From the IMG/VR virus record IMGVR_UViG_3300028654_000009: DNA of 64,000 nt; one strand, 5' to 3'. This DNA comes from a virus. Every line of letters starts with the position of its first letter. Positions within the stretch are counted from its first letter, which is position 1. The position numbers were made by a program, and so were the translations under genes. The notes under the pieces are model-generated. The model ran no database searches and was not told where the DNA came from. It was given only the letters and a program-made list of their open reading frames with translations. This document shows positions 6,731 through 30,979 of this stretch, one piece after another.

Positions 6731-6970
6731 ATGAAGAAGCCCATGAAGAAGCCGCGCAAAATCACGACCTTTGAGGCAGAACTGATCGAAAAGGTGGAAC
6801 AAGCCGAAGAGCGCCTCGTGGGCGCCTCCAAAAGGTTTTCTGACGCTGTCGCGTTTGGTGGGGACGTTGACCGTCTCCGGGCACGGCTCGACGTCGCCCT
6901 GGCCGAATTCGAGAAGCTGTCCAGTTGCCTCGACGGTATCTTCCCCCTCGAACCGGGGGAGGTCCGCTAA
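6731..6970 (+). CDS. Small coiled-coil hypothetical protein
   Basis: 79 aa, AAGGAG RBS. Confidence 0.7.
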   Translation: MKKPMKKPRKITTFEAELIEKVEQAEERLVGASKRFSDAVAFGGDVDRLRARLDVALAEFEKLSSCLDGIFPLEPGEVR

Positions 6971-8289
6971 ACCACCCAGAGCTGGTTGATTGCACTGTCG
7001 GCGGCCGTGAACCCCATAGCCGCCTTCAGTGCGTCCAGGCGCTTTACGCACGCGCGGGGGTCAATCCCGAACCTCGACAGCGACTTATACAGCGCCTCCG
7101 TATCGAGCCCCTTGACCCACGTGGACAGCTCGACCTCAACCTGGTGGTTCACCCGGGGCATCGACTTAAGCTTCGCGTCAGGCGTGAAGTCCTTGAATTC
7201 AGCCGGGGCAAGAGCCCTGAGGTAGTACGGCGTAAACGAGCTTTTGTCGTGCGCCGGGTCGAAATTCTCGCCGGCAAAAGCCGAACCGTGGTCAATCAGC
7301 TTGACGTCGGCGCCCCGAAACATCGTGTTGCCGGCGTTGCTGTCAGCGTTCCCGAGGATGTAATCGACCGCCGCCCACTTATGAAGCGTGCCGTCATGGC
7401 GGTAAATCTGGAGGGCCTTCCTGGCAGCGTTCGGGTCCTGGGTTTTTAGCTTGTTGCCATCGACATAGTCGCCCGACAGCATTTTCTGGACCGCGTATTC
7501 GCGCCCGTCGATCATCAGCAGGTAGCACTCGGGGTAGTAGGCGCCAAGTCCCCAGGAGGCCACCACGTCGTAAAAAGCCGCTTCCCGGCGAGACTGGGTC
7601 GCCGAGGTGTCGCTCTCGCCGGCAGCCGGATTCTGGCGCCCCGACCCAGGCTTGAGCAGGTAGCGCCCGTGGTTTTCTTTGTCGTAAGCCACCAGGGTGC
7701 CCTTCGAGTGCTTCCCGCCGAGCTTGATGGGGGTTATCTCGTCCTCGGACGATGCCTGCGCTACGAGCTTGGCGAACTTGACGCCGCCCTCCGTCATTGC
7801 GGCCACGTCCTTGAATTTGACGGGCTCGGGGTCTTCCGACTTCTTCAGCCCAGAGAGCCGGAGGTAGTCTGCAAGGCCCTGGCGGGTTTCATCGCTGGGC
7901 TCCAGGCCGCAGGCCATGAGCGCAGCGTCCACCGGGTCGTCGTCGCAGTGGACCCTGGCGGCCCGGACCTCATCGGGTGAGGGGGTAACCCCCGAAAGGA
8001 ACGAAGCGGCCCGCAGGCAGTCAGCCAGGTTGGTTTCCTGGCCATGTAGCGCGTCCTCTAGGTTGCGCGGTGGAGTCACCTCGATGTCGCCAGAGGGCTC
8101 GTTCTCGACCCAAGCGGAATAAGCCTGGGCCTGGTCGAGGCCAGGCACCAGGACACTCACAGGCGCGTGCTGGCCGTACTTCCTTGTCAGCCAATGGTAA
8201 GCATGCAGGAGCTGTTCACGGACCTCGTCCTCGTCACCCTCGTAAGCGTGGGTGCAGTCCTGATAGTGCTGCTGGACGATGACTCGCAT
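6967..8289 (-). CDS. Putative head protein with C-terminal PI3/4-kinase-like (HipA/CtkA-like) kinase domain
   Basis: Start re-called to ATG 8289 (TAATG). YLLKPG, RREAAFY, DYILGNADSNAGN and LIDHGSAF motifs; LKKS precedes the kinase. Confidence 0.75.
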   Translation of the reverse strand: MRVIVQQHYQDCTHAYEGDEDEVREQLLHAYHWLTRKYGQHAPVSVLVPGLDQAQAYSAWVENEPSGDIEVTPPRNLEDALHGQETNLADCLRAASFLSGVTPSPDEVRAARVHCDDDPVDAALMACGLEPSDETRQGLADYLRLSGLKKSEDPEPVKFKDVAAMTEGGVKFAKLVAQASSEDEITPIKLGGKHSKGTLVAYDKENHGRYLLKPGSGRQNPAAGESDTSATQSRREAAFYDVVASWGLGAYYPECYLLMIDGREYAVQKMLSGDYVDGNKLKTQDPNAARKALQIYRHDGTLHKWAAVDYILGNADSNAGNTMFRGADVKLIDHGSAFAGENFDPAHDKSSFTPYYLRALAPAEFKDFTPDAKLKSMPRVNHQVEVELSTWVKGLDTEALYKSLSRFGIDPRACVKRLDALKAAMGFTAADSAINQLWVV

Positions 8290-8489
8290 TACTCGACCTC
8301 GACCGCCAGGTCCTGTGCGGTATGGATGCGTCGCAGCACGTCTTGGATGGAGGTGGGGTTGTGGCCGGCATTGCGCGGGTGTGTCATCGCCCAAGGAAAC
8401 TCCAAAAGAAGCTGGGCGACGATCTGCTCGGGCTCCCCCCGGAAGGTTTCGACTTCCTGAGACCAAATATTTGTAATCTTGACCGTCAT
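8289..8489 (-). CDS. Small protein paralogous to the N-terminal domain of the downstream kinase
   Basis: 66 aa, coupled on both sides. GEPEQIVAQLLLEFPW vs GDEDEVREQLLHAYHW. Confidence 0.7.
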   Translation of the reverse strand: MTVKITNIWSQEVETFRGEPEQIVAQLLLEFPWAMTHPRNAGHNPTSIQDVLRRIHTAQDLAVEVE

Positions 8490-11400
8490 TACTCTAACGC
8501 TCCCAGACTTTCGTACTCGGGCTGCTCGCCCTGCTCGCCCAGCGGGTCATACCATTTTTTATCTTTTGGTTTTCGGTACTGGTCAATATCTTGGAATCGC
8601 TTTTCTGCGTCCGCCATGACTTGCTTTTTGTTGAACCGATTTGTCTCAAACCCGGGGATGACCTCCTGGGCCCCCTCATTATAGTGCTCCGGAATCATAT
8701 TAGCATGCTCACGGAACTTGTCAAGCATTGCTCCCTTGTTTTTATCGAACCAATCCCAGGTCCCCTTCCATGCTTCCGGATTTTCTCCAGGCAATCCGCC
8801 CATAACCAAGGCGGCATTGTGAGTCAACAACCTAGAGTGATCCATAACGGGCCTATGTCCGCCATCGAACAGTCCCCCGTGGTCAATAGCCAACGGCAGA
8901 CCGTTAGGCTGGATCATCAGATTGTTGCTGTGGCGATCTGAGTTGCCCGTTAGATAGTCCATAATGGCAATCCGGCGCATGGCTTCACGTGCCTCCGGCC
9001 GATCGGCTACCCGGCCGGGCTCATAACCCGACCCCACATCACTGAAAGCTTGATGTAGCGACTTTACCCCAGGCTCCATATGTACGACCAAAGCGGGATT
9101 ATGGAGCCTCTCTTGAATATTGCCCTTCCCTCCCGGAATATTGAGCTGGGTGGCATGAACCTTTTGGTGAAGGTGCCCGATCCCGCCGGCATGGTACATG
9201 GCCTGATTGGTTAGCTCATTCCAGGCGGACAGGGGGGTTTGCTGGTTGCTGGCCGGCTTGACCATGTAGCGCTTGCCTCCGTGTTGATAAACGGCCTTGG
9301 GTTCGATATCGCCCTTACCGTCAGGCCCTCTCCCTTCCCACACCATGGTGGGCTCGTGCGTGTTGTTACTGTCGTTCAGGTTCTTCTCAAACGTGTTGAC
9401 GTCATTCTGGTGGGCAGCCGGATGGGCCTTCATCAGGCTGTTGTGAATCATCTTGGCTCCCAAGGTGGCATCGAAGCCCTGATGACCAAACACGCCCATC
9501 AGCTGGTCCTTCCCGCCCGCAAGGGCTTTGGACATCATTCCGTCGTCCCCAAGCAAAGGCTCCAGAGCGGCCTTCCATTTGGGGTCCCGTCCACGCCGAT
9601 GCTCTTCCACTCGCTTGTTGAGCCAGTTGATCCGTTTTTGGAAGCCAGCACGAAGGTTGTACTTCGCGCGCGGGTCGGTCACGTTCTCCAGGCGCTTCTC
9701 GAACGCTTCTTGGATAGGCAGCTTGTTTTCGTCGTACCAGGGCAGTACGTGGCGCGCGTCCCAAGAGTTCAAGCCCGGAATCTGATAGTCCCTGTCTTGG
9801 GGGAACGAACCTGGCCTGTTGTGGCCTGCGGCATAAGAAAATGCGCTGCCGTGATCAATCGCCAAAAGGGTCTTATCGGGCCTTACAAGGAGGTTTTCAC
9901 TGTGTCTGTCTTGATTGTCGATCAGGAAATCCATCAGCTGAATTTTGCGGATGTCCGCCTGGTTCGTAGGCAGGTGGTCCCTTTTGAATGAGGTGTTCCC
10001 AATATCCTTAGCCGGCTCCGCTCGGATTACCTGCGCTGGTACCATCCAATCGCCATACCCATGAGGGGCCGTGAAGGTTTCCTGGTGAAGCCTGCCGATA
10101 CCCGCAGCGTGGTACATAGCCTGGTTGGTGTTTTCCGCCCAGCCCGGCATGAACCCGTGTTTGCTGTAGGGCTTGACAATGAACTTCTGAGCCTTTGCGT
10201 AGCCCTTGACCGGCAGCTTATAGATCATCTTGGGATCGCCGCCCCTTGAAAGCTTATCTATTGTCTTGTCGGCATGGTCATAGATGCCCGAAGACCTCTC
10301 CGGCTTGACATGCGCAGCCATCCCTTGCCGATACGCCTCGACCGAATAATGGTGATGGGGCATAGGTTCTTCTGCTGCTGGATTGGAGAGATGGGGAGCC
10401 TTGACCTCTTCTGCGAAGTCGTTGGCGTTATCAATCACGGCCTTCGCCATACGCAGTTTAGGATACTTCGAATGCCCCCTGACTTTCTCGATGTGAGCCG
10501 CTGCCACCTGAATCGGAAGCGAAGGATCGTCCTGGGTGGCCTCTATCATGTGGTGGAGGTGCTCATCTGTCAGGCGAGGGTCCGCCATCAAGTCTTCATG
10601 ACGGTGAAACACAGGGTTTCCCTCGTGGTCGCGAGTGGAGTGTGCCAACACCCTCAATGCCAGGTTAGAAAGCGGGTGATAGAACGCGGTTTTGTAAACG
10701 TTGTGGTCGGGGTCGAGGATCGCGTTGGCTACGTCAGTTGGATCGGTCGAGTCCATCTTGAGAGCCAGCGAGCGTTCAATGGGGTCCGGGTGCTCAAGCA
10801 GGTGTGCAGCTTCAGAGGGCTCGTGTTTCTTGACATAGTCCTTGAGGTCTTTCTTCCCCTTCCAGCTGAACGCGGGTGTCTTGACCCGGTCGTTGATTCT
10901 TCCGTCTAGGGTGGCTTCGTCTTCTGCAAAAGCTTTTTCGTGTTCTTCGGGCGTAGCTAGTTGAGACTTATGCGGTCCCACAATAGTCTCCCAATGTGGG
11001 CTCTGATAGCCAGGCCCAGCAGGTTTGGTGGAATGTGAAAAATCGTTCTCTTTGGCCCATTGTGCGTTGTCTTCGGCGCGTGGGTGGACGGCGCCCCACA
11101 TCGGCAACATTGCGTGGATATCATTCTGGTGAATCCAGGCTGAAGTGATAGGCCCCTTGTACTCTCGCTTGAAATTATGGAGGATGCTGTACAGCTCTCC
11201 CGGAGGGGCGCCCACAATAGGCGTCCAGGAGGTTTTTCTGTCATGCGACACGTGCGCAGGGCCGACGGCGGATTGAGCTTCGGCAGGAGACATCGCCCGG
11301 TGCATAAGGAATGACCTGGTGCCGTCCGGGTGAACCTTGACTTGGGTTTTCCCAGAAAGCTTGTGGAGGCCCCTGACGCGCGCGGGGCCCTCCATTCTGG

Positions 11401-12523
11401 GGATATTCTCCCTGGTTGGGTCTTCCCTGAAACGCCTTTGATAATCCGGGTCAGAAGCGACTTGCCACCTTGCTACGGCCTGCTCGCCTTGGGGAGAAAG
11501 GTCTTGAAAGGGATCGTAGCTGGGGAGGGCTTTGTTTAGGCCAGCGCCGCTATGGGCGATCGCGTAGGGGCTGTCTCTCGGCAACCTCTCCAAATGGGCT
11601 CCCCCATTAGGGACCACGGCCGACACGGACCCTTCGTCTTCCGCTACATTCCGATAATAATAACCGCGCTTGGCGGCCCCTCTTTTTATGGCGCCCGCCA
11701 TATAACCGTTGGCCCTAAAGTCATCGTGGGCCGACATGGGAGTGTTCGACATAGGGCCCACGATCCTGACAGGGAAGATATCTGGCTTGTGGTTTGGCGA
11801 TATAGATGTCCCGTCTCCAAAGGTGGGCATCGCGGTAGCGTAATGATCTTCTGCCATAGGCCCGCTATTGTATCCGGTCCTCTGGACGCCCCTAGCTTGC
11901 AAGGTCTTGTGGCCGGCGAGCAAGGTCTTCCCATATTCTCTTGTGCCGTCCCAGCTGCCCTCTGCCGGAACACCGATTCTTGCATGCAAAGCCTGCTCTG
12001 CAGCCTTCCGGGTCCCGATATGCAGCCCCACTTTGCCGCCAACTAGCTCACCGCTCGGACTCCCATGCCACCACACCTTTTCCCTGTGGCCGTCGTTAGT
12101 GGCTTTGGCCAGGCCTTCGCCCTCTTCAACGCTGAACAACTGGCGCAGGAGGTTAGCCTCACCAGGAGGCCCTTCGAGGTTTTCCCACACGTCCCTGGGA
12201 ATGCCTTTGAGCACCGGAATCCACTTCCAGGCGCCATCCTTGACTTCCTCGTCAGGGTCATGGGTCGAATGGGCGTCACCTGAGCAGAGAGCCGAGAACA
12301 GGTGGATCATTGCGCCGGACGGATTAACTTCAGATTTGATATGCGTCAGTGACTTAGGGCGCAGGCCGGTCTCCTCGTACAGCTCCCTGGCGGCAGCTAC
12401 CGTTTTGTCTTCGCCCTCGTTGAGACCCCCACCTGGCATCGTCCAGGTGCCACGGTCGGAGCGCTTCCCGAGCAAAATCTCGCCTTTCCCGTTGGTGACG
12501 AGTATGAGAGAAACTTGCTTCAT
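8489..12523 (-). CDS. Polyvalent protein: Nudix + ART-like + ART-like + helical repeats + two PI3/4K/HipA-like kinase domains
   Basis: Nudix box GGGLNEGEDKTVAAARELYEETGL. ART-like WHGS...GLHIGT...YRNVAEDEGSVS and HRAMS...TSWT...WETIV. Kinase motifs NQDRHSEN...IDHG and NSDRHSNN...IDHG. Confidence 0.8.
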   Translation of the reverse strand: MKQVSLILVTNGKGEILLGKRSDRGTWTMPGGGLNEGEDKTVAAARELYEETGLRPKSLTHIKSEVNPSGAMIHLFSALCSGDAHSTHDPDEEVKDGAWKWIPVLKGIPRDVWENLEGPPGEANLLRQLFSVEEGEGLAKATNDGHREKVWWHGSPSGELVGGKVGLHIGTRKAAEQALHARIGVPAEGSWDGTREYGKTLLAGHKTLQARGVQRTGYNSGPMAEDHYATAMPTFGDGTSISPNHKPDIFPVRIVGPMSNTPMSAHDDFRANGYMAGAIKRGAAKRGYYYRNVAEDEGSVSAVVPNGGAHLERLPRDSPYAIAHSGAGLNKALPSYDPFQDLSPQGEQAVARWQVASDPDYQRRFREDPTRENIPRMEGPARVRGLHKLSGKTQVKVHPDGTRSFLMHRAMSPAEAQSAVGPAHVSHDRKTSWTPIVGAPPGELYSILHNFKREYKGPITSAWIHQNDIHAMLPMWGAVHPRAEDNAQWAKENDFSHSTKPAGPGYQSPHWETIVGPHKSQLATPEEHEKAFAEDEATLDGRINDRVKTPAFSWKGKKDLKDYVKKHEPSEAAHLLEHPDPIERSLALKMDSTDPTDVANAILDPDHNVYKTAFYHPLSNLALRVLAHSTRDHEGNPVFHRHEDLMADPRLTDEHLHHMIEATQDDPSLPIQVAAAHIEKVRGHSKYPKLRMAKAVIDNANDFAEEVKAPHLSNPAAEEPMPHHHYSVEAYRQGMAAHVKPERSSGIYDHADKTIDKLSRGGDPKMIYKLPVKGYAKAQKFIVKPYSKHGFMPGWAENTNQAMYHAAGIGRLHQETFTAPHGYGDWMVPAQVIRAEPAKDIGNTSFKRDHLPTNQADIRKIQLMDFLIDNQDRHSENLLVRPDKTLLAIDHGSAFSYAAGHNRPGSFPQDRDYQIPGLNSWDARHVLPWYDENKLPIQEAFEKRLENVTDPRAKYNLRAGFQKRINWLNKRVEEHRRGRDPKWKAALEPLLGDDGMMSKALAGGKDQLMGVFGHQGFDATLGAKMIHNSLMKAHPAAHQNDVNTFEKNLNDSNNTHEPTMVWEGRGPDGKGDIEPKAVYQHGGKRYMVKPASNQQTPLSAWNELTNQAMYHAGGIGHLHQKVHATQLNIPGGKGNIQERLHNPALVVHMEPGVKSLHQAFSDVGSGYEPGRVADRPEAREAMRRIAIMDYLTGNSDRHSNNLMIQPNGLPLAIDHGGLFDGGHRPVMDHSRLLTHNAALVMGGLPGENPEAWKGTWDWFDKNKGAMLDKFREHANMIPEHYNEGAQEVIPGFETNRFNKKQVMADAEKRFQDIDQYRKPKDKKWYDPLGEQGEQPEYESLGALE

Positions 12524-13880: not shown

Positions 13881-14300
13881 ATGCGTTATGTCTTACCTTT
13901 GCTGGCGATCCTGCTGACGGCCTGCCCTCCCAAGGCACTTCCACAAGACCCCCAAATGGTCCAGGCGGTCCAGATTGCGTGGAGCTATTACAAGCTCCCA
14001 GGGAAGCCCCCTACGTACGTCCTGATGCAGGGCGCGGCCCTTACGTGCAGGAATAGCCCGGGCACAGAAATGGTTGGCTGGGGATGTAAGGGCGTGGTTC
14101 ACCCAGGCTGCACTTGCGTCGCCGGCACGGAAGACGGGGCGAGCTTTGCTATTGCTCGGGTGGATAATCAGCCGTGGCACACGACTGCAATTTGTCACGA
14201 AGCCCAGCACGCTGCTGTGGGCAACTACAACCATACGCAACCAGCCTGGGACAACCTGTTGCTCCCCTGCCAGGCCGCTCAGACTGCCGCCGGGCTCTAG
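13881..14300 (+). CDS. Cys-rich lipoprotein with HExxH motif
   Basis: Signal peptide with lipobox LTAC; CHEAQHAAVGNYNH. Confidence 0.65.
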   Translation: MRYVLPLLAILLTACPPKALPQDPQMVQAVQIAWSYYKLPGKPPTYVLMQGAALTCRNSPGTEMVGWGCKGVVHPGCTCVAGTEDGASFAIARVDNQPWHTTAICHEAQHAAVGNYNHTQPAWDNLLLPCQAAQTAAGL

Positions 14301-14842
14301 TCCTCTTCAGAACTCTTTCGGCTCTCCCAGAATTCTTCGAGTTCTCTGTCCCTTTCGGCCAACGTAGTTCCCAGTAGGTCATCGAGGGCGCCGTCATCAT
14401 AGGTGCCCGTTGCAAGTGCCTTCCCGAAGAATCCACTAACCTCATTTACGAACGCTGTTGGAGACAGCAGCTCCCTTGGGGTGGGCATGGTCCCGGGGCT
14501 GACGTGGTGGAGGCGTTCAAACTTCTCTCCTAGATCAAACCACCACTCAATCTCCTTGCCTAGGTCGATAGCAAGGATGATTTCGAGTTCCATCCCCTCA
14601 CTTATGGCCCCTCCGACGATATAAACAGCAACACGGTCAGAGGTTGCCAAATACGCCTGGGCGGCGATGATTCCTAGCTGTCTGTCCACTTCTTTGGTGT
14701 CGTCTAGAAATTGCGTGTAATACCCGTGTGGAGCAAAGGGCGCTCTCCCCATGCTCAGCTGGTGAGTTGCATACCGATGGCTCTTAAGGATGTTCCCCGA
14801 AACTTCGCCCCGCAGCCTGCTGCAAACGAATACCGTTTCCAT
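14297..14842 (-). CDS. Nucleoside 2-deoxyribosyltransferase-like (DUF4406-like) protein
   Basis: VFVCSRLRG...PFAPH...ISEGMELEI motif pattern. Confidence 0.65.
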   Translation of the reverse strand: METVFVCSRLRGEVSGNILKSHRYATHQLSMGRAPFAPHGYYTQFLDDTKEVDRQLGIIAAQAYLATSDRVAVYIVGGAISEGMELEIILAIDLGKEIEWWFDLGEKFERLHHVSPGTMPTPRELLSPTAFVNEVSGFFGKALATGTYDDGALDDLLGTTLAERDRELEEFWESRKSSEED

Positions 14843-16051: not shown

Positions 16052-17443
16052 TTACAGCTGTCCGCGCAAGTTGTCGATCAGCACGTTCTTGCGGGGCTCC
16101 ACAACCGCCAAAGTCAAGAACCGCAGATGCGCCTCGGGGATGCTGAGGTCCGAGACCGCCAGCTTCACTCGGCTGTAAGGGGCAAGCTCCTTCAGCTCCA
16201 TGGTGTCGCCCTGGATGAGATAGCCCGTCACGAAGCCCGGGAGCTTATTCCCGAGGTCGAGGAAGGTGGTGTTACCCGACACCGCCGAGATAACCCGACC
16301 AACGAACTTGGCCGAGGAGGCCGCGCCGCCAGCGTTCGTGCGGTACACATTGTACCCGCGAACCGTACCAGAACCCGGAGGGGTGATGGTCAGGGTGATC
16401 TTGTCGTTCAGGTTGACCGAGGCCGACGCGATAGAGGCCGAAGCCGGGGACTCGCCGTTCTCGTTGAACGAGGTGACGTAGAAGGTGTAGACGCCAGCCG
16501 CGAGAGCCCCACCGGCGCTGTTGGCAATGCCGAGGGTAGGAGCGGTAGGAGAGTTGGCGCGGGTGCGAGCCGGCTTGCTCTTACCACGAAGGAACTGGCT
16601 GGCCTCGATGTTGACGGTACCACCAGAAACCCACTGCTTGCGGAGGTCGCCACCGGTCGAGTCCTGAGGGGACCCCGCGAGAATTACTCGCTCCTTGCCG
16701 ATAACCAGCTTGTTGTAAGCCGAGAGGACAATCGGGTCAACCAGAAGGCGGTTGGCAGTGCCGAAGTTGAGAGCGCTACGAACCGCCGCGTCCTCAACCT
16801 TGCCCTGGTCCAGGGTGCCGCCGCCCGAGAGAACCACAGAGTCGTCCGAGCCGAACTCTGAGAACATAAGGTCTCGGCTGTTGACCTGCATGTCGCTCTG
16901 ACGAACCTGGAGACCGAGCCCGTGAATGTTCGGGAGGGCCGGGACGGCGAAGGGATTGCCGTCGAACACGCCCGCGTTCGAGAAGTCGTCGATACCACGG
17001 AAGCTGTCGAACTCGATGTCGCCAGCGATCTTCTTGGCAGCGTCAGCAGCGGCGCGCTCGTCGCTCTTCTTGCCGTCAACAGTCGCCACCATCGTCGAAG
17101 CGATGGTCACCCGACGAACGTGGGAGTAGAATGCCATTGGCACCGTAACCCGCACGAAGTCCGAGGTCTCTTCCTGTCCGACCTGGCCTTCGAGCTGGGC
17201 AGACCCGCCGAAGATACCGTAGCTGAGCTGACGGTCGAACTGGTAGAGGGTGGCCTTGCAGGACGAGGTCCCCACGATCTTCTGGAGCTTGATGTGGCTC
17301 TCATCGAAAGTGACGTTGTTCATGACCGGGCTGCAGTCCTCGATTTGAAGGGCAGCACCCTGGGTCAGCGTACTGGGGGCTGCGTCATAGTTGCCAGCCT
17401 CCAACGCCTTCTTAAGTTCAGTAACGGCATCCATTGCGTTCAT
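16052..17443 (-). CDS. Major capsid protein (SPO1/Twort-like, with FN3-like insertion)
   Basis: 463 aa, strong codon bias. Short propeptide ending LKKA, then GAALQIE; FN3-like YTFYVTSFNENGES. Follows the scaffold and precedes a strong terminator. Confidence 0.9.
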   Translation of the reverse strand: MNAMDAVTELKKALEAGNYDAAPSTLTQGAALQIEDCSPVMNNVTFDESHIKLQKIVGTSSCKATLYQFDRQLSYGIFGGSAQLEGQVGQEETSDFVRVTVPMAFYSHVRRVTIASTMVATVDGKKSDERAAADAAKKIAGDIEFDSFRGIDDFSNAGVFDGNPFAVPALPNIHGLGLQVRQSDMQVNSRDLMFSEFGSDDSVVLSGGGTLDQGKVEDAAVRSALNFGTANRLLVDPIVLSAYNKLVIGKERVILAGSPQDSTGGDLRKQWVSGGTVNIEASQFLRGKSKPARTRANSPTAPTLGIANSAGGALAAGVYTFYVTSFNENGESPASASIASASVNLNDKITLTITPPGSGTVRGYNVYRTNAGGAASSAKFVGRVISAVSGNTTFLDLGNKLPGFVTGYLIQGDTMELKELAPYSRVKLAVSDLSIPEAHLRFLTLAVVEPRKNVLIDNLRGQL

Positions 17444-23910: not shown

Positions 23911-24114
23911 TTAATTCGTCTCGAAACGGACAGCCGAAACGACGCGCTGGATCTGGACGTCTTCGACATCACAAGGAGCCAGGTCGTTCTTCCCGATGAC
24001 ATCCGCCCATTCGTCAAGCTCTTCTGGAGGCGGCGGTCTGAAGTCGTCGGCCACTTGGATCTCGTAAACGGAAGTGGCCATCTCCTGGACTACTACACGG
24101 TAGGTCTTACTCAA
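23911..24114 (-). CDS. Small hypothetical protein
   Basis: Start re-called to TTG 24114 after a GGGGAG RBS. Confidence 0.55.
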   Translation of the reverse strand: MSKTYRVVVQEMATSVYEIQVADDFRPPPPEELDEWADVIGKNDLAPCDVEDVQIQRVVSAVRFETN

Positions 24115-24886
24115 CGTCTCCCCCTTCTCTTTGTTGTTTGTATTCGTCGTGGTCCTTGGACTTGAAAGTGACGAAACCGTTGCTATTAAAACCAAATCCG
24201 GGCATGAGGATGGTCATGCTGCACCTACAATTTGGGTGCAGGACGGTACAGGGATGATCGTCGCCCCGCTTCCAGTAGCCTGAGCCCACCTCGGACAGTT
24301 TCCACACCCTGGGGGTAGTCTGGTCCGGCAAAAGGAACAAGCTCGTGCAGTCTTCGCACCGAGACTTGTCCCTGACCGTCACCCAAAACACTGTCGGGTC
24401 TTGCTGGCTGGTAGCCGCAGCGATTTTTGAGATTCCGTCAAGAGTGCCCATATTCCGAGCGCGGGTGGACTCTGTATCGACGATTCGGCGCACGTCCGAC
24501 GTGACTTTACCCATGACCTCGCCAAGCTCGTCACCCAGAACCTGGTGAAAATTGGCGCTTTCGCCTTTGGCCTCAGCATCATGAAGGGTGGCCTGGACCG
24601 TGTGTACGATTTTGGCCTTCGCCAGCTCACGGTGAGCGTCGAGGTATTGTTCGGCGACGGATTTCAGGCTGTCCCGAAGCTTCTCCGAGGGAGTAAACCC
24701 TTCGCTCCTGGTGGCGTTGTCAAACAGCCCTGGGAGGCTCAGGGTGTCGTTGTGAAGCTTGACACCCACACGGATAGTCTTGTCCTTGCCTGGACCCAGG
24801 AAACGCTGTTTAGCCCTCTGGAATAGGCCGTCGATCGCCGCGTGAATGGCGTTGATGGCCTTCTTCGTGAGGATGAACCGAGGCAC
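24107..24886 (-). CDS. MuF / SPP1 gp7-like minor head morphogenesis protein
   Basis: RIVDTE...RCEDC...LHPNCRC signature. Confidence 0.85.
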   Translation of the reverse strand: MPRFILTKKAINAIHAAIDGLFQRAKQRFLGPGKDKTIRVGVKLHNDTLSLPGLFDNATRSEGFTPSEKLRDSLKSVAEQYLDAHRELAKAKIVHTVQATLHDAEAKGESANFHQVLGDELGEVMGKVTSDVRRIVDTESTRARNMGTLDGISKIAAATSQQDPTVFWVTVRDKSRCEDCTSLFLLPDQTTPRVWKLSEVGSGYWKRGDDHPCTVLHPNCRCSMTILMPGFGFNSNGFVTFKSKDHDEYKQQREGGDVE

Positions 24887-25794: not shown

Positions 25795-27918
25795 TTATTT
25801 CTTCTTGAAGTGCGCGGCCACGTCGAGAATCTCTTTTACGGCCGCCTTCGAGTCTTCCTCCCACCCGTCCATAAAGTGCTCGACAGTCTTGTTGTGTTGT
25901 GCTAAGAGCCGCCGCTTGTCCGGCGGGAGCTGCATCTCGTGCTTGCTCAGGGCGTCAAAGGCGATATCGATCGAGCGAGCCAGGTCCGAGGCTCCTGAAC
26001 CAGTCGCCCCTTGCCCCGAGGCGTCTGGGCTGGCCGCCGACTGCTGTTTCTGGGTGGGCTCTGGAGTGTTCTGGCCGCCGGCTGAAGGTCCCTGTGACGG
26101 GTCTCCCCCGCCTCCTGGCTGCCCTCCTGGGGCCCCTCCACCGCCGCCCCCATCCTGTGGGGGCCCGCCACCCTGGGCCTGCTGCTGCTGGGCCATCTGG
26201 GCCTGTTGCTGCGCTTGCTGTTGCTGGACCCACTGGAACCAGAATGGGTCTCTCACGTAGGCCAGATTGGGGTCCTTGCTGGCCCCCTCACGGCCGCAGA
26301 AGTGCTCCAGAATTTGGCCGACGGTGAAATACTGGTCGAGGTAGGTCTTGAACACCGGATTAAGCGGGATTGTGCCGCCCCATGCCTTGCCAACCGGCGG
26401 CTTCTCGACTCGCTCCGAGATGTCGTCATAGTTCATCCAGATCGACATGTCCTGCTGGGTCCGGACGGCTTCTTTCTCGGCGTTGTCGGATTCGAGACCG
26501 ACGAGCCTTACCGAGGCCTTCTTGGACAACTTAGGGTCGATGAGGGGGAACAGGTGCTGGTTGATGAAGTCTTCGAAATTCTTCAGCAGCGGCCGGATAC
26601 CGACATCCCGGGCCGCCGTCATTTTGTACTCGTTGTTGCTCTCCGACAGGGCCTGATTGTTGGTGCCCTTAGACAGATATGACCATCCAGGTAGTTCGTC
26701 TGGAGACATCATGAATGCAGTTAGGATTTCCCGAGCATTCAAATCGCACAGGTACTGAAACTCCATATCCTTCCCCCCGCCCGTATCGATAGGCTTCCAA
26801 TCAATACTTTCATCGACGCCACAACCAAACACTGGCATGCGCCACGAGTTATTGACGCTGTTGATGCTAGCGTTGAACTGTTGCTTGATATTGTGGATGA
26901 CCTGTGGGTTAGCATCCTCGGACGAAATCACCAGCATGCCGCGAGCGGCGCGGCCTGATTGAAAGTAGAGCTTGTTGTGTTGGGTCAGATTAATGTGCGT
27001 GGTCACCGCACTGATGATCGTGTCGATAGGCGTGACGGGATACCCGTCTAGCTCGACGTCTGGAACTGGGTAGCAGTTGTAGACCGACATCTCCTCGGCC
27101 GTGAACGCCTGCTTAGGAGTTCCTTCTACCACCTGTACATAGCAATAGTCGCCGGCCTCGTACTTCTCTTTCTCCAGCTTTTTGCCGGTGATTCTGCAAA
27201 GAAGGTGGTACGCGTCTTGGCGAACGGACTCTAGGCTATCCTGGTTGGAAGGAGCTGCGTCATAAATCGTTCCCGCATCGACGGCGACGAAGTGGTGGAA
27301 CTTTTTCTTGCCCGGAGAGTCCGGGTCATCGATCCAGACTTTTTCACAGGCGATTCGTCCGACGACCAAAGCGTTTCGGGCCTGGAGGGCCAGGAACTCG
27401 GAGAAAGTAGTAACCATATCTAGGCCCGTCGTTTCGCCACACAGGTTGAGTTTCTTGACGGCCCGGTCGATCTGGACATTGAATTCCTTTTTCTCCTCGG
27501 GCGACATCTTGTCCAGCTCGCCTGTATTCGCCTTGATGACGAACCCCGTAGAGAAACGGTCTTCACGGGGGCGCCCGAACGAACTGAGGTGGTTCTGGCG
27601 AGCCCTTACAATGTTTGAAACCAACGAGTCCTGGATTGCAATGCGCTTGAGCATTGCGTCCGGGATGAGTCGCATCTTGGCGCGGTAAACGCCACTGTAA
27701 GTATTATTGAGAGTCGGGTCGGTTTCGAACGATAGCCTTTCTACGCTATCATTACCCTGCCCGTTAAGGACGTTGAGGATCGATTTGGTGAGACTTGGCT
27801 TGTCCTCCCCTGTGCGAACGTACACCATTGACTTGGCCAGGTTCGCAGAAAGTTGCTCCTCGTTGAGCCCCAGTCCGTAAGTCAGGTTGGAGGTGGATTT
27901 TGGGGTTCGCCTTTTCAT
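25795..27918 (-). CDS. Portal protein
   Basis: 707 aa. YPVTPID...YFQSG...DMEFQ...MSPDEL...GIRPLL pattern; two genes downstream of the terminase; Q/G/P-rich tail. Confidence 0.9.
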   Translation of the reverse strand: MKRRTPKSTSNLTYGLGLNEEQLSANLAKSMVYVRTGEDKPSLTKSILNVLNGQGNDSVERLSFETDPTLNNTYSGVYRAKMRLIPDAMLKRIAIQDSLVSNIVRARQNHLSSFGRPREDRFSTGFVIKANTGELDKMSPEEKKEFNVQIDRAVKKLNLCGETTGLDMVTTFSEFLALQARNALVVGRIACEKVWIDDPDSPGKKKFHHFVAVDAGTIYDAAPSNQDSLESVRQDAYHLLCRITGKKLEKEKYEAGDYCYVQVVEGTPKQAFTAEEMSVYNCYPVPDVELDGYPVTPIDTIISAVTTHINLTQHNKLYFQSGRAARGMLVISSEDANPQVIHNIKQQFNASINSVNNSWRMPVFGCGVDESIDWKPIDTGGGKDMEFQYLCDLNAREILTAFMMSPDELPGWSYLSKGTNNQALSESNNEYKMTAARDVGIRPLLKNFEDFINQHLFPLIDPKLSKKASVRLVGLESDNAEKEAVRTQQDMSIWMNYDDISERVEKPPVGKAWGGTIPLNPVFKTYLDQYFTVGQILEHFCGREGASKDPNLAYVRDPFWFQWVQQQQAQQQAQMAQQQQAQGGGPPQDGGGGGGAPGGQPGGGGDPSQGPSAGGQNTPEPTQKQQSAASPDASGQGATGSGASDLARSIDIAFDALSKHEMQLPPDKRRLLAQHNKTVEHFMDGWEEDSKAAVKEILDVAAHFKKK

Positions 27919-28921: not shown

Positions 28922-30979
28922 TTAGCCCAGGTCCCAGCTCAGCTTCCCGGTCTTCCCAGTCTTGCTGTTGGCCCCCTGTCCGGAGGACTTTTTCTTCTTT
29001 CCTGGCTTCTGGGACGAACTTTCTTCCTCGCCGTAATAGCTAAACACGGAACTGCCGTCCGGATTCTCAATACGCATTGGAGGCCTCCCGACCGTGGACA
29101 CTTCCTCCTCCATGCCTCCTGTCTTGGAGGCGACGTAATTCCGCATCCAGTCCGCGTGCGGTTTAGGAGTTGTTTCAGCTTGGGCTTTCTCGTTCGAGAC
29201 CGCCAGACCGCCGTCCATGCTAAACACGTTCATCACGATATACCGGACACAGTCCGCGCCGTCATCGTTATCCTCGGAAGGGATGTTGGTGGGTTTCCCG
29301 GCTGCGTCGTTTTTCCAGTGGTATTCGACGATGCTTCTGATGAAAGCTTCCATGTGTTGGTCGTCATCAATATCCAAAACGAAGAACAACTCGGGCTCGT
29401 CTGTGCCTGGGTTGAGTTTTTTCCTGACGATATTGATACCGCTTACCACAGAACCTGGCTTCTTGGACCAATTCTGTATCTTCCAGCCATTCTTGCGGAA
29501 CATCTTGTTCATCTTCGGGTCAGCCGTGTCTGGGTAGATTTTTGCCTCCCAGTCTTTGTACGGCTCAGAGACCTCAAGCATCTGGTCGGGGTCAAGCCCC
29601 GGCATCATGATTGCGTTCGTGATGAACTGACGAGCGCCGTCCTTGAAACCCAGGCCGAAGGCGAAATTGTGGGTAGACCCCCAGTCGATTCCGCCATTCC
29701 ACTCCACATCTCTCTGAGCCATGGCGGCCATAAACATGGCCTTGGTGTAAAGCCTCGGCTCGATCCCTTCTGGCAGCTCTCCGAAAACCTTCTCGTAGGC
29801 CTCGGCGGGGGTAAGAACATGTTTTTTGCGGTCGAACCGATGATATATCAAACCGGTCGAGGCTGGCTTAAGACAGAGGAGCTGGGCGATACCCATCTCT
29901 ATGCTGTTGACTTTGATAAGCTGGTCTTGGACGTGTTTGATAGGCTTGAGGAACTTTGATGTGTTCGTTTGTCTGGTAGCCAGATTCCCCTTGCATGCAG
30001 AGAACAGCTTGCAATTGGTCATACAGCCGGAATAGGCCATGTCCTCGGTGTATGACTCCTTCTGTTTGAAGGTGAACGAATTGTAGGTATCCTCGTCCAC
30101 CGTACTACGCTCCTGTGTAGAGCGAAACACCTTCAATTTTGGCAAATCCGGGCGGTGGCGCTTGGGAGGACACGCCTCGGTCACGTCAAGGATGTTGAAG
30201 TGCTTTATCTTGAGCCCGGTCTTGTCGGCGTTGTTGATTTCGTCCTGAACGATGCCGAATGCCGTTTTCCTGGTGGAGGTCAGAATGGTTAGCGGGGGGA
30301 CCTTGACACCATCCCTTCTGGTCAACGGCGTAGGAATATTCTTCGCTTCTTCGTAAGCCTTGATGTTGACGATGATGTCAATCTCATCAAGACACAGAAG
30401 GGGTGAGTGCTTCCCGTTTGTCGAGGTGATGGTTGCGACTACGATTTCTGCCTGGTTCTCTACCCTGAAGTAGCCAGAGTGCTCACGCTCAGGGAGCGAA
30501 AGGAATTCCTTTTCGGTCAACACCAGGCCCCCTGGGTTTACGGGCCGGTACAGGATTACACCCGTTTTCCTTTTGGAGTCTCCAGCAACAAACCCTCGGA
30601 GATGTTGCCTCGACAAAAACTTCTTCAAGTATTTTTGGGCGTTGGTGCTCTGCTCCTCGATGGCCGCGAGGTGGACCACAGAGATATCAAGATGGAACAA
30701 GGCCAGGACCTCTACCACGGACTGGGTGAGCGTTTTCCCGGCATCACGGGCAGAATAATACAACACACGCGGGGCCTCATCGCCGGTTGCGGTGTTGGGG
30801 TCATAGTGAGCGAAATGGGAATATGTCGCCCAAGCCATATCAAGCGGTGTCGTGTTGGAATCCGGGTCTACAATAGCGTCCGGAAGCTCAAGGTCCAGGT
30901 GGACGTAAATCCAGTCCTTGAGTTCCTCCCGCGTATTGCAAATCGTGAATATCGACTCGCGCATCTCGGGGTCGAGCAT
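28922..30979 (-). CDS. terL: Terminase large subunit
   Basis: Walker A ARDAGKT, Walker B LCLDEID, motif III STR, nuclease GGIDWG...DDGAD. Confidence 0.9.
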   Translation of the reverse strand: MLDPEMRESIFTICNTREELKDWIYVHLDLELPDAIVDPDSNTTPLDMAWATYSHFAHYDPNTATGDEAPRVLYYSARDAGKTLTQSVVEVLALFHLDISVVHLAAIEEQSTNAQKYLKKFLSRQHLRGFVAGDSKRKTGVILYRPVNPGGLVLTEKEFLSLPEREHSGYFRVENQAEIVVATITSTNGKHSPLLCLDEIDIIVNIKAYEEAKNIPTPLTRRDGVKVPPLTILTSTRKTAFGIVQDEINNADKTGLKIKHFNILDVTEACPPKRHRPDLPKLKVFRSTQERSTVDEDTYNSFTFKQKESYTEDMAYSGCMTNCKLFSACKGNLATRQTNTSKFLKPIKHVQDQLIKVNSIEMGIAQLLCLKPASTGLIYHRFDRKKHVLTPAEAYEKVFGELPEGIEPRLYTKAMFMAAMAQRDVEWNGGIDWGSTHNFAFGLGFKDGARQFITNAIMMPGLDPDQMLEVSEPYKDWEAKIYPDTADPKMNKMFRKNGWKIQNWSKKPGSVVSGINIVRKKLNPGTDEPELFFVLDIDDDQHMEAFIRSIVEYHWKNDAAGKPTNIPSEDNDDGADCVRYIVMNVFSMDGGLAVSNEKAQAETTPKPHADWMRNYVASKTGGMEEEVSTVGRPPMRIENPDGSSVFSYYGEEESSSQKPGKKKKSSGQGANSKTGKTGKLSWDLG

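Follow-up and report, generated by a model that had tools for sequence, protein, structure and literature searches.

In bacteriophage T4, cleavage by the prohead protease gp21 takes a short N-terminal targeting peptide off proteins that each carry a single enzyme. In phage SPN3US, the prohead protease processes ejection proteins that are packaged in the head (PMC10052503), and head-packaged ADP-ribosyltransferase (ART) and Nudix domains have already been predicted in print (PMC9503650). For polyvalent proteins, which string several effector domains on one polypeptide, Iyer et al. (2017, PMC5512222) proposed that zincin metallopeptidase (MPTase) domains within the protein carry out the processing. 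The current study concerns P0001, a gene for a protein of 1344 residues in a 64,000-nucleotide stretch (the window) of the IMG/VR record IMGVR_UViG_3300028654_000009. The whole genome record is one 132-kb contig, and its source, judged by sequence, is a large uncultured phage, kin of Myxococcus phage Mx1 and an Mx1-like myophage. We propose, at a probability of about 0.6, that P0001, a polyvalent effector protein, is associated with the virion and is cut by the prohead maturation protease into separate enzymes. Polyvalent proteins and the prohead processing of packaged proteins are both already known; a polyvalent protein with the motif of a prohead protease at its junctions would be new.

Junction motifs and module borders of P0001

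We identified 63 homologues of P0001, 775 to 2278 residues in length, which share the Nudix and kinase modules and have the middle swapped. They carry PBECR5, ART-PolyVal, InPase and GNAT domains above Pfam cut-offs, plus other domains, which bears out the polyvalent-protein reading of an earlier note made on this DNA from its letters alone, as does the setting among structural genes. The end-points of the high-scoring segment pairs (HSPs) between these homologues and P0001 cluster at residues 130-149, 550-579, 960-979 and 1020-1029, and therefore define module borders independently of any motif. The earlier note had placed five [LM]-x-K-A motifs at domain boundaries. All five were recovered within a few bases of where it had put them, and four of them, at K140, K331, K694 and K999 (J1 to J4 in Table 1), indeed stand at module borders. 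The fifth, SLMKA with K1032, was rejected as a junction site, because it falls within a conserved element, H..L...HP, that opens the kinase-2 module, and the Lys itself varies among the homologues; a comparison by eye puts G-M-A-A at the corresponding place in kinase 1. A further border, absent from the note, is marked by V-K-K↓H at K566 (the arrow denotes the predicted cut). With K1032 removed and K566 added, six products are likelier than the approximately five that had been foreseen.

The borders and the motifs coincide closely. At J1, 36 homologue end-points fall in the bins 130-149, and the strict motif is present in 30 of 44 homologues compared to 4.0 expected, where the expectation, here and for all junctions, was drawn from windows placed at random within these proteins; a relaxed form is present in 41 of the 44. 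At J2, the homologue P0032 begins (query ~329), and the homologues of module B carry L-x-K-[AKG] ahead of a conserved LP.[YF][ND]P. Around K566, 39 end-points fall in the bins 550-579 and six homologues start at query ~571; K↓H variants are common at the junctions of the homologues. K694 (J3) lies in a gap-rich, variable linker that joins the helical domain to kinase 1, with the strict motif in 30/53 homologues (6.5 expected) and the relaxed motif in 48/53 (15.8 expected). K999 (J4) lies within the 975-1020 gap that separates the kinases, between the end-point clusters, and matches J3 in the duplicated kinase module at a rough offset; here the strict and relaxed motifs are found in 20 and 39 of 51 homologues (6.6 and 16.8 expected, respectively). 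The strict motif is depleted in the Nudix, helical and kinase cores (0-2 vs 5-7.6 expected), and the sequence flanking the linker motifs is not conserved among the homologues. The note had also proposed that the borders of a structure model be compared with the motifs: in an AlphaFold2 (AF2) model covering modules A and B, K140 and K331 fall in the two linkers with a predicted local distance difference test (pLDDT) score below 50. Within P0001 itself, [LM]xK[AS] occurs 5 times vs 1.33 expected from shuffles (p=0.012), and three of the five motifs fall within linker as marked independently by homologue end-points and pLDDT, which makes up 6% of the protein (p ~2e-3).

Several homologues (P0003, P0005, P0020 and P0068) share a longer linker, W-L-x-x-G-F-x-D-L-x-K-[GSK], ahead of differing modules, which suggests that the sequence recognised, or marking the cassette boundary, is longer than the motif.

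The same motif in the scaffold, the capsid protein and the protease

A genome-wide scan for enrichment of [LM]xK[AS] was headed by the scaffold-like protein of 318 residues (9 vs 0.59 expected, p 1.4e-8), followed by a neighbouring polyvalent protein of 1770 residues and then by P0001. Related phages show the same excess. In Mx1, the scaffold has 4 motifs vs 0.68 expected and the Nudix polyvalent protein has 7 vs 1.58, and the scaffolds of three metagenomic relatives retrieved through P0001 homologues (L002-L004) have 6 each vs ~0.6-0.9. When all X1-x-X3-X4 patterns were ranked in the five scaffolds without bias, LxKS, MxKS and LxKA came out at the top. Pooled over these scaffolds, [LM]xK[AS] is found 31 times vs 3.4 expected, approximately 9-fold, and the control patterns [LM]xE[AS], [LM]xR[AS] and [IV]xK[AS] as well as the reversed motif are at or below expectation, which rules out helical or heptad periodicity as the cause. 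The major capsid protein (MCP) reads L-x-K↓A-[LM]-E-A-G in all five phages, at residues ~10-16, and also in Bacillus phage SP-10 (L005, AB605730.1). Directly past its putative catalytic domain, the 1240-residue protein P0065 has V-R-K↓A-I-E-A-G and, behind it, a copy of the N-terminal arm of the MCP; stand-alone homologues are built likewise. If the junction motif is the prohead protease's own, P0001 would be a capsid-internal polyprotein.

These results bear on the unlikely alternative that P0001 acts as an uncleaved 150-kDa multi-enzyme, as do N4 virion RNA polymerase (vRNAP)-type and plasmid polyvalent proteins. The motif would then be a conserved feature of linkers: it might cap a helix, serve as a signal for docking or capsid targeting to which the scaffold/protease system binds, or be a joint that moves along with recombining cassettes. 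Iyer et al. (2017, PMC5512222) note several polyvalent proteins that stay unprocessed when they are packaged or transferred, and each module of P0001 starts just past a motif, as the inheritance of cassettes predicts. However, a structural or recombination joint leaves the pattern-specific excess in the scaffolds unexplained, as well as the sites at the N-terminus of the MCP and behind the catalytic domain of the protease, and the absence of conserved flanks at the protein level also speaks against it.

The putative protease to which these sites point is the N-terminal domain of P0065. Compared with the procapsid protease of SP-10 (Herelleviridae), it gives an hhalign probability of 85.7% (E 5.4e-6, 168 columns) with the catalytic motifs in register (NWEH~NYDH, RFSIEGS~GFSIEGK), and H57 and S138 are invariant in the alignment of the domain (A2). 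One homologue of the domain matches phrog_1028 at E 0.002, and the Mx1 orthologue of the 1240-residue protein is annotated as a prohead protease. We therefore regard the domain as a putative His/Ser prohead protease, an assignment based on an annotated relative rather than on a biochemically tested one. The literature searched held no experimental data on cleavage after Lys for SPO1-like or Mx1-like phages. Felix O1 was dropped as a guide to specificity, since both a protease of the ClpP/S49 type and an MCP that stays unprocessed are reported for it. Cleavage of P0001 might also take place outside the prohead, by another Lys-directed protease of the phage or the host acting in the cytoplasm or after ejection, with the likeness to the scaffold sites arising from a shared but different protease. 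Post-injection processing has been proposed for some polyvalent proteins (Iyer et al., PMC5512222), and the location of P0001 in the virion is itself a prediction. This alternative is nevertheless very unlikely, as the domain scans found no other peptidase domain in P0001 or its homologues, and the sites in the scaffold and at the MCP N-terminus point to a maturation protease acting inside proheads.

The copy of the MCP arm, [RK]-K-A-[LI]-E-A-G ... A-P-S-S-L-T-G-G-A-A-L-Q-K-E, was observed at residues ~228-255 of P0065, in P0214-P0216 and in L005:4518-5261; in the stand-alone protease homologues and in the SP-10 procapsid protease it forms the C-terminus. It may be a mimic for docking to the capsid. 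The SP-10 region (AB605730.1, 4518-7371) is itself rich in hydrophobic-x-K-[AS], with 7 vs 1.17 expected in the scaffold-like protein and 6 vs 0.62 in the protease, and the predicted cleavage specificity may extend to SPO1-like phages. The second polyvalent protein of the genome, that of 1770 residues (~5.7-11 kb before the window start), carries 8 strict motifs where 1.72 are expected, but three resemble the R-G-x-G-L-G-K-A element of GNAT domains and are probably false positives within a domain.

Enzymatic modules

The reading frame of 1344 codons reported in the earlier note is real, starting with an ATG that overlaps the stop codon of the upstream gene within TAATG. Its Nudix and two kinase domains were also confirmed. 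The Nudix domain matches PF00293 at residues 5-104 (E 7.8e-17; 62 bits vs a gathering threshold of 21.1) and has an intact box, G-x5-E-x7-R-E-U-x-E-E-x-G-U, at residues 32-53; its substrate might be ADP-ribose, NAD-capped RNA or signalling nucleotides. PI3_PI4_kinase (PF00454) matches two stretches of P0001 at 57 bits vs a cut-off of 27.1. Both kinase domains retain a DRHxxN catalytic loop and IDHG, and where kinase 1 has IVKP as the beta-3 Lys motif, kinase 2 has MVKP; kinase 2 also weakly matches the catalytic loop of Vps34. Phosphoinositides are not typical lipids of bacteria, and a protein or a small molecule would therefore seem the likelier substrate of the kinases.

Directly downstream of P0001, a gene for 499 residues (window 6967-8466, minus strand) encodes a third kinase paralogue. 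Its catalytic loop is degenerate, reading G-N-A-D-S-N-A-G-N instead of G-N-S-D-R-H-S-N-N, and I-D-H-G is retained; the product may be a pseudokinase. The first ~70 residues of this reading frame look like read-through, and translation probably begins at a later codon. The equivalent slot holds a gene for 440-444 residues in the relatives, with a PI3_PI4_kinase match in two of three, and the 619-residue 'kinase' in Mx1.

Between the Nudix and kinase modules, the earlier note had seen two ART-like domains and HEAT-like repeats. Residues 141-694 have no sequence match in Pfam, PHROG, NCBIfam or PDB. The AF2 model nevertheless favours the ART reading: an exhaustive VIA-align search found structural neighbours almost entirely in the ART superfamily, at modest Z (<=4.8), which suggests that both middle modules have the ART fold. 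The neighbours of module A, which is modelled at pLDDT 85-94, are the RES/MbcT/ParT toxins, tankyrase/PARP, diphtheria toxin (DT), Arr and AcrIF11, and those of module B are CNFy domain 4, KptA/Tpt1, TreTu/TreX, ExoS, VIP2, C2-I, iota-like toxin, pertussis, Scabin and HopU1. Foldseek of the same model against PDB and BFVD gave nothing at E<=0.001. Module A has the invariant residues H153 (in WHGS), Y290 and E295 in H..Y..E order, as read from the alignment and not by superposition on a known active site. In module B, R409, S432 and E512 follow the R..S..E order, with H-W-E in P0001 and E-H-E or E-K-E in the relatives; its invariant positions within ~332-557 are H408-R409, S432-W433-x-P435, S461-A462-W463 and E512, in an alignment of few relatives. 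No relation between modules A and B was found by hhalign, and a combined alignment (A4), which had stacked module-B rows onto module A, was discarded. As for the HEAT-like repeats, a helical domain is present at ~567-694, with no match in Pfam, PHROGs or NCBIfam; a weak HEAT match was obtained in one relative, P0039.

Module A is widespread. An exhaustive search for ~148-316 reached 467 or more representative clusters, which it found almost always via module A, and the module is 50-70% identical among proteins of 190 to >4500 residues. As a domain of ~170 residues (148-316; window ~11576-12082) it occurs stand-alone, in proteins of ~190-280 residues, and as part of longer proteins, the largest of 4564 residues. 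A profile of module A found nothing among PDB sequences, and 40 of its members had no match in Pfam, ART-PolyVal (PF18760) included. Module A as a form of ART-PolyVal was ruled out, with an hhalign probability of 0.2% against the ART-PolyVal domain of P0020. It looks like a domain family lacking a Pfam, NCBIfam or PHROG model that deserves description.

Genomic context

P0001 is placed in the head-to-tail structural module (Table 1). The order on the minus strand is terminase, portal, MuF-like gene, 1240-residue protein, 318-residue protein, MCP, a few small genes, 281-residue gene and P0001, and this synteny is kept in Mx1 and in L002-L004. In Mx1, the 'putative prohead protease' (~1239 residues), a scaffold-like gene, the MCP (58% identical), the 281-residue gene, a 1479-residue 'NUDIX hydrolase' and a 619-residue 'kinase' follow each other. 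A megablast search of the P0001 region against phage records gave no match, and tblastn matches of P0001 were limited to the Nudix genes of Mx1 and of a Vibrio phage. A gene resembling DUF7768 and nucleoside 2-deoxyribosyltransferases (window 14297-14842, minus strand) stands within the head module and is kept there in L002 and L003.

Table 1 Features of the window discussed in the text. Cut sites are predicted; modules are numbered from the N-terminus of P0001.
Feature	Position	Strand	Remarks
P0001, whole polyvalent-protein reading frame	8489..12523	minus	1344 residues, ATG start; 63 homologues
Module 1, Nudix hydrolase (residues 1-140)	12104..12523	minus	Pfam PF00293; sequence likeness to NUDT15/RppH (PDB)
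J1, L-A-K↓A (K140), predicted cleavage site	12101..12112	minus	GLAKA, nucleotide ~12106
Module 2 / module A, probable ART fold (residues 141-331)	11531..12103	minus	invariant H153, G154, H168, Y290, N292, E295, S301
J2, L-N-K↓A (K331), predicted cleavage site	11528..11539	minus	GLNKA, nucleotide ~11533
Module 3 / module B, probable second ART fold (residues 332-566)	10826..11530	minus	R-S-E-like: R409, S432, E512
Relaxed junction motif V-K-K↓H (K566)	10823..10834	minus	border of module B and helical domain; absent from the earlier note
Module 4, helical domain (residues 567-694)	10442..10825	minus	in homologues always accompanies kinase 1
J3, M-A-K↓A (K694), predicted cleavage site	10439..10450	minus	RMAKA, nucleotide ~10444
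Module 5, kinase 1 (residues 695-999)	9527..10441	minus	PF00454; IVKP 782, DRHSEN 872, IDHG 889
J4, M-S-K↓A (K999), predicted cleavage site	9524..9535	minus	MMSKA, nucleotide ~9529
Module 6, kinase 2 (residues 1000-1344)	8492..9526	minus	PF00454, best stretch 1182-1219; DRHSNN 1196, IDHG 1213
SLMKA (K1032), rejected as site	9425..9436	minus	nucleotide ~9430
281-residue gene, upstream of P0001	12523..13368	minus	TAATG translational coupling; near-neighbour upstream in relatives too
MCP, 463 residues	16052-17443	minus
MCP N-terminal L-K-K↓A, then LEAG (residues 10-13)	17405..17416	minus	same element in Mx1, L002-L004 and SP-10
Scaffold-like low-complexity protein, 318 residues	17486..18442	minus	between protease and MCP
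P0065, 1240 residues	20170-23892	minus	GGDEF domain at its end
Putative prohead protease domain, first ~185 residues of P0065	23338..23892	minus	invariant N-x-E-H (H57), R-x-S-I-x-G (S138)
MuF-like minor head gene	24107-24886	minus
Portal	25795-27918	minus
Large terminase	28922-30979	minus

A setting of this kind could also suit a protein that never enters the virion, a late cytoplasmic multi-enzyme engaged in nucleotide or NAD housekeeping or in superinfection control, in which the excess of motifs is a coincidence. Genes for thymidylate synthase, deoxynucleoside monophosphate (dNMP) kinase and the DUF7768/deoxyribosyltransferase-like protein are interspersed in the module, in Mx1 and here, and the enrichment in P0001 taken alone reaches only p 0.012. 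Against this reading stand the junction-specific conservation over the 63 homologues, the depletion of the motif inside domains, the translational coupling to a conserved gene of the structural module and the polyvalent domain repertoire of the family. We consider the cytoplasmic role highly improbable.

Proposed model

We propose a model in which P0001 is made late, in translational coupling with the upstream structural gene, and is incorporated into the prohead. There, the His/Ser maturation protease would cut after Lys in the [LM]-x-K↓[AS] linkers, and probably in V-K-K↓H too, at K140, K331, probably K566, K694 and K999. Approximately six products would result: the Nudix enzyme (~15 kDa), ART-fold A (~20), ART-fold B (~26), the helical domain (~15), kinase 1 (~35) and kinase 2 (~38). 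Ejected with the DNA, these would act on molecules of the host as soon as infection begins and modify them, and the modules would behave as cassettes, bounded by protease sites, that related phages shuffle among themselves. In this model, the packaging, the cleavage itself, the ejection and all of the substrates are inferred.

The prohead-protease polyprotein foreseen in the earlier note thus gains strong indirect support, all of it comparative, from the conserved junctions, the enriched scaffolds, the MCP site and the homology of the protease, and loses one of the sites proposed for it. Several observations weigh against the model. The motif excess within P0001 is by itself modest; the homologues, and the scaffolds, are related to one another, so that the conservation of the motif is partly inherited rather than independent; and the homologues P0005 and P0022 have relaxed junction variants only (e.g. 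K↓H), with no overall excess of the strict motif. The placement by structure model covers J1 and J2 only. No capsid-targeting signal was identified for P0001. The protease domain has no Pfam, PHROG or PDB-profile match at normal thresholds, and the AF2 model of this domain, at pLDDT 41, could not be used. In SPN3US, every identified cleavage apart from the self-cleavage of the protease removes an N-terminal propeptide (PMC10052503).

The wider form of the proposal, to which we give an even chance, is that the capsid maturation protease of Mx1-like phages doubles as a polyprotein processor, with effectors as exchangeable cassettes between [LM]-x-K↓[AS] sites that are automatically packaged, released and injected. 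If the junction motifs are indeed sites of the maturation protease, a simple and testable rule would follow for the delivery, by large phages, of several separate host-takeover enzymes encoded in a single gene. This would also explain the free shuffling of polyvalent proteins, as the modules bring their own release sites. It would also predict a hydrophobic-x-Lys↓Ala/Ser specificity for the lineage of proteases common to the Herelleviridae-type head module. Since Mx1 grows on Myxococcus xanthus, the prediction is directly testable; cuts after Lys, if real, would look much like ends made by trypsin when virions are analysed by standard tryptic proteomics. The two families of probable ART fold, which lack Pfam, NCBIfam and PHROG models, may hold new activities that depend on NAD and modify the host or counter its defences.

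Comparison with known systems

A polyvalent protein of a phage or conjugative element holds 2-15 unrelated effector domains on a single chain; P0001 has six modules and is encoded in the structural module, and its homologues display the shuffled repertoire of ART, kinase, GNAT, PBECR and InPase. In its multi-effector build, its shuffling, its ART, kinase, GNAT and PBECR domains, its linkage to head genes and its predicted co-injection, the family resembles the proteins described by Iyer, Burroughs, Anand, de Souza and Aravind (2017, PMC5512222). Unlike those, P0001 has no peptidase domain and bears at its junctions the motif of a separate prohead protease; its two modules of probable ART fold are not ART-PolyVal, and its kinases match PI3_PI4_kinase, whereas the kinase described in that paper is a truncated S/T/Y kinase.

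With Alt and the other internal proteins of T4, P0001 would share an ART that is packaged in the head and delivered with the DNA, which for P0001 is predicted. The motif is also comparable to I/L-x-E of T4 gp21 (PMC12991175), in that a hydrophobic P3 and a charged P1 are common to the sites of scaffold and MCP. In contrast to T4, the P1 residue here is Lys, and with its sites placed between five or six enzyme modules P0001 would be a true polyprotein. The prohead proteases of the giant phages SPN3US, phiKZ and 201phi2-1 cut many packaged ejection and inner-body proteins at a short conserved motif, sometimes at multiple sites (PMC10052503, PMC5694885), as is proposed here, whereas the SPN3US motif differs and no modular enzyme string is involved.

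The nearest relative is Mx1 (OR576727.2), in which the 1479-residue 'NUDIX hydrolase' and the 619-residue 'kinase' form a syntenic, orthologous locus behind the 281-residue gene. The middle modules of Mx1 differ from those of P0001, its last kinase is a separate gene, and the Nudix region alone aligns (tblastn, 36% identity). The likeness extends to the head module of the Herelleviridae, of the SPO1/SP-10 type, from which no polyvalent cargo protein is known and which has a homologous procapsid protease and a distantly related MCP; that of SP-10 reads N-L-N-K↓A-L-E-A-G, matching the L-x-K↓A-L-E-A-G found here.

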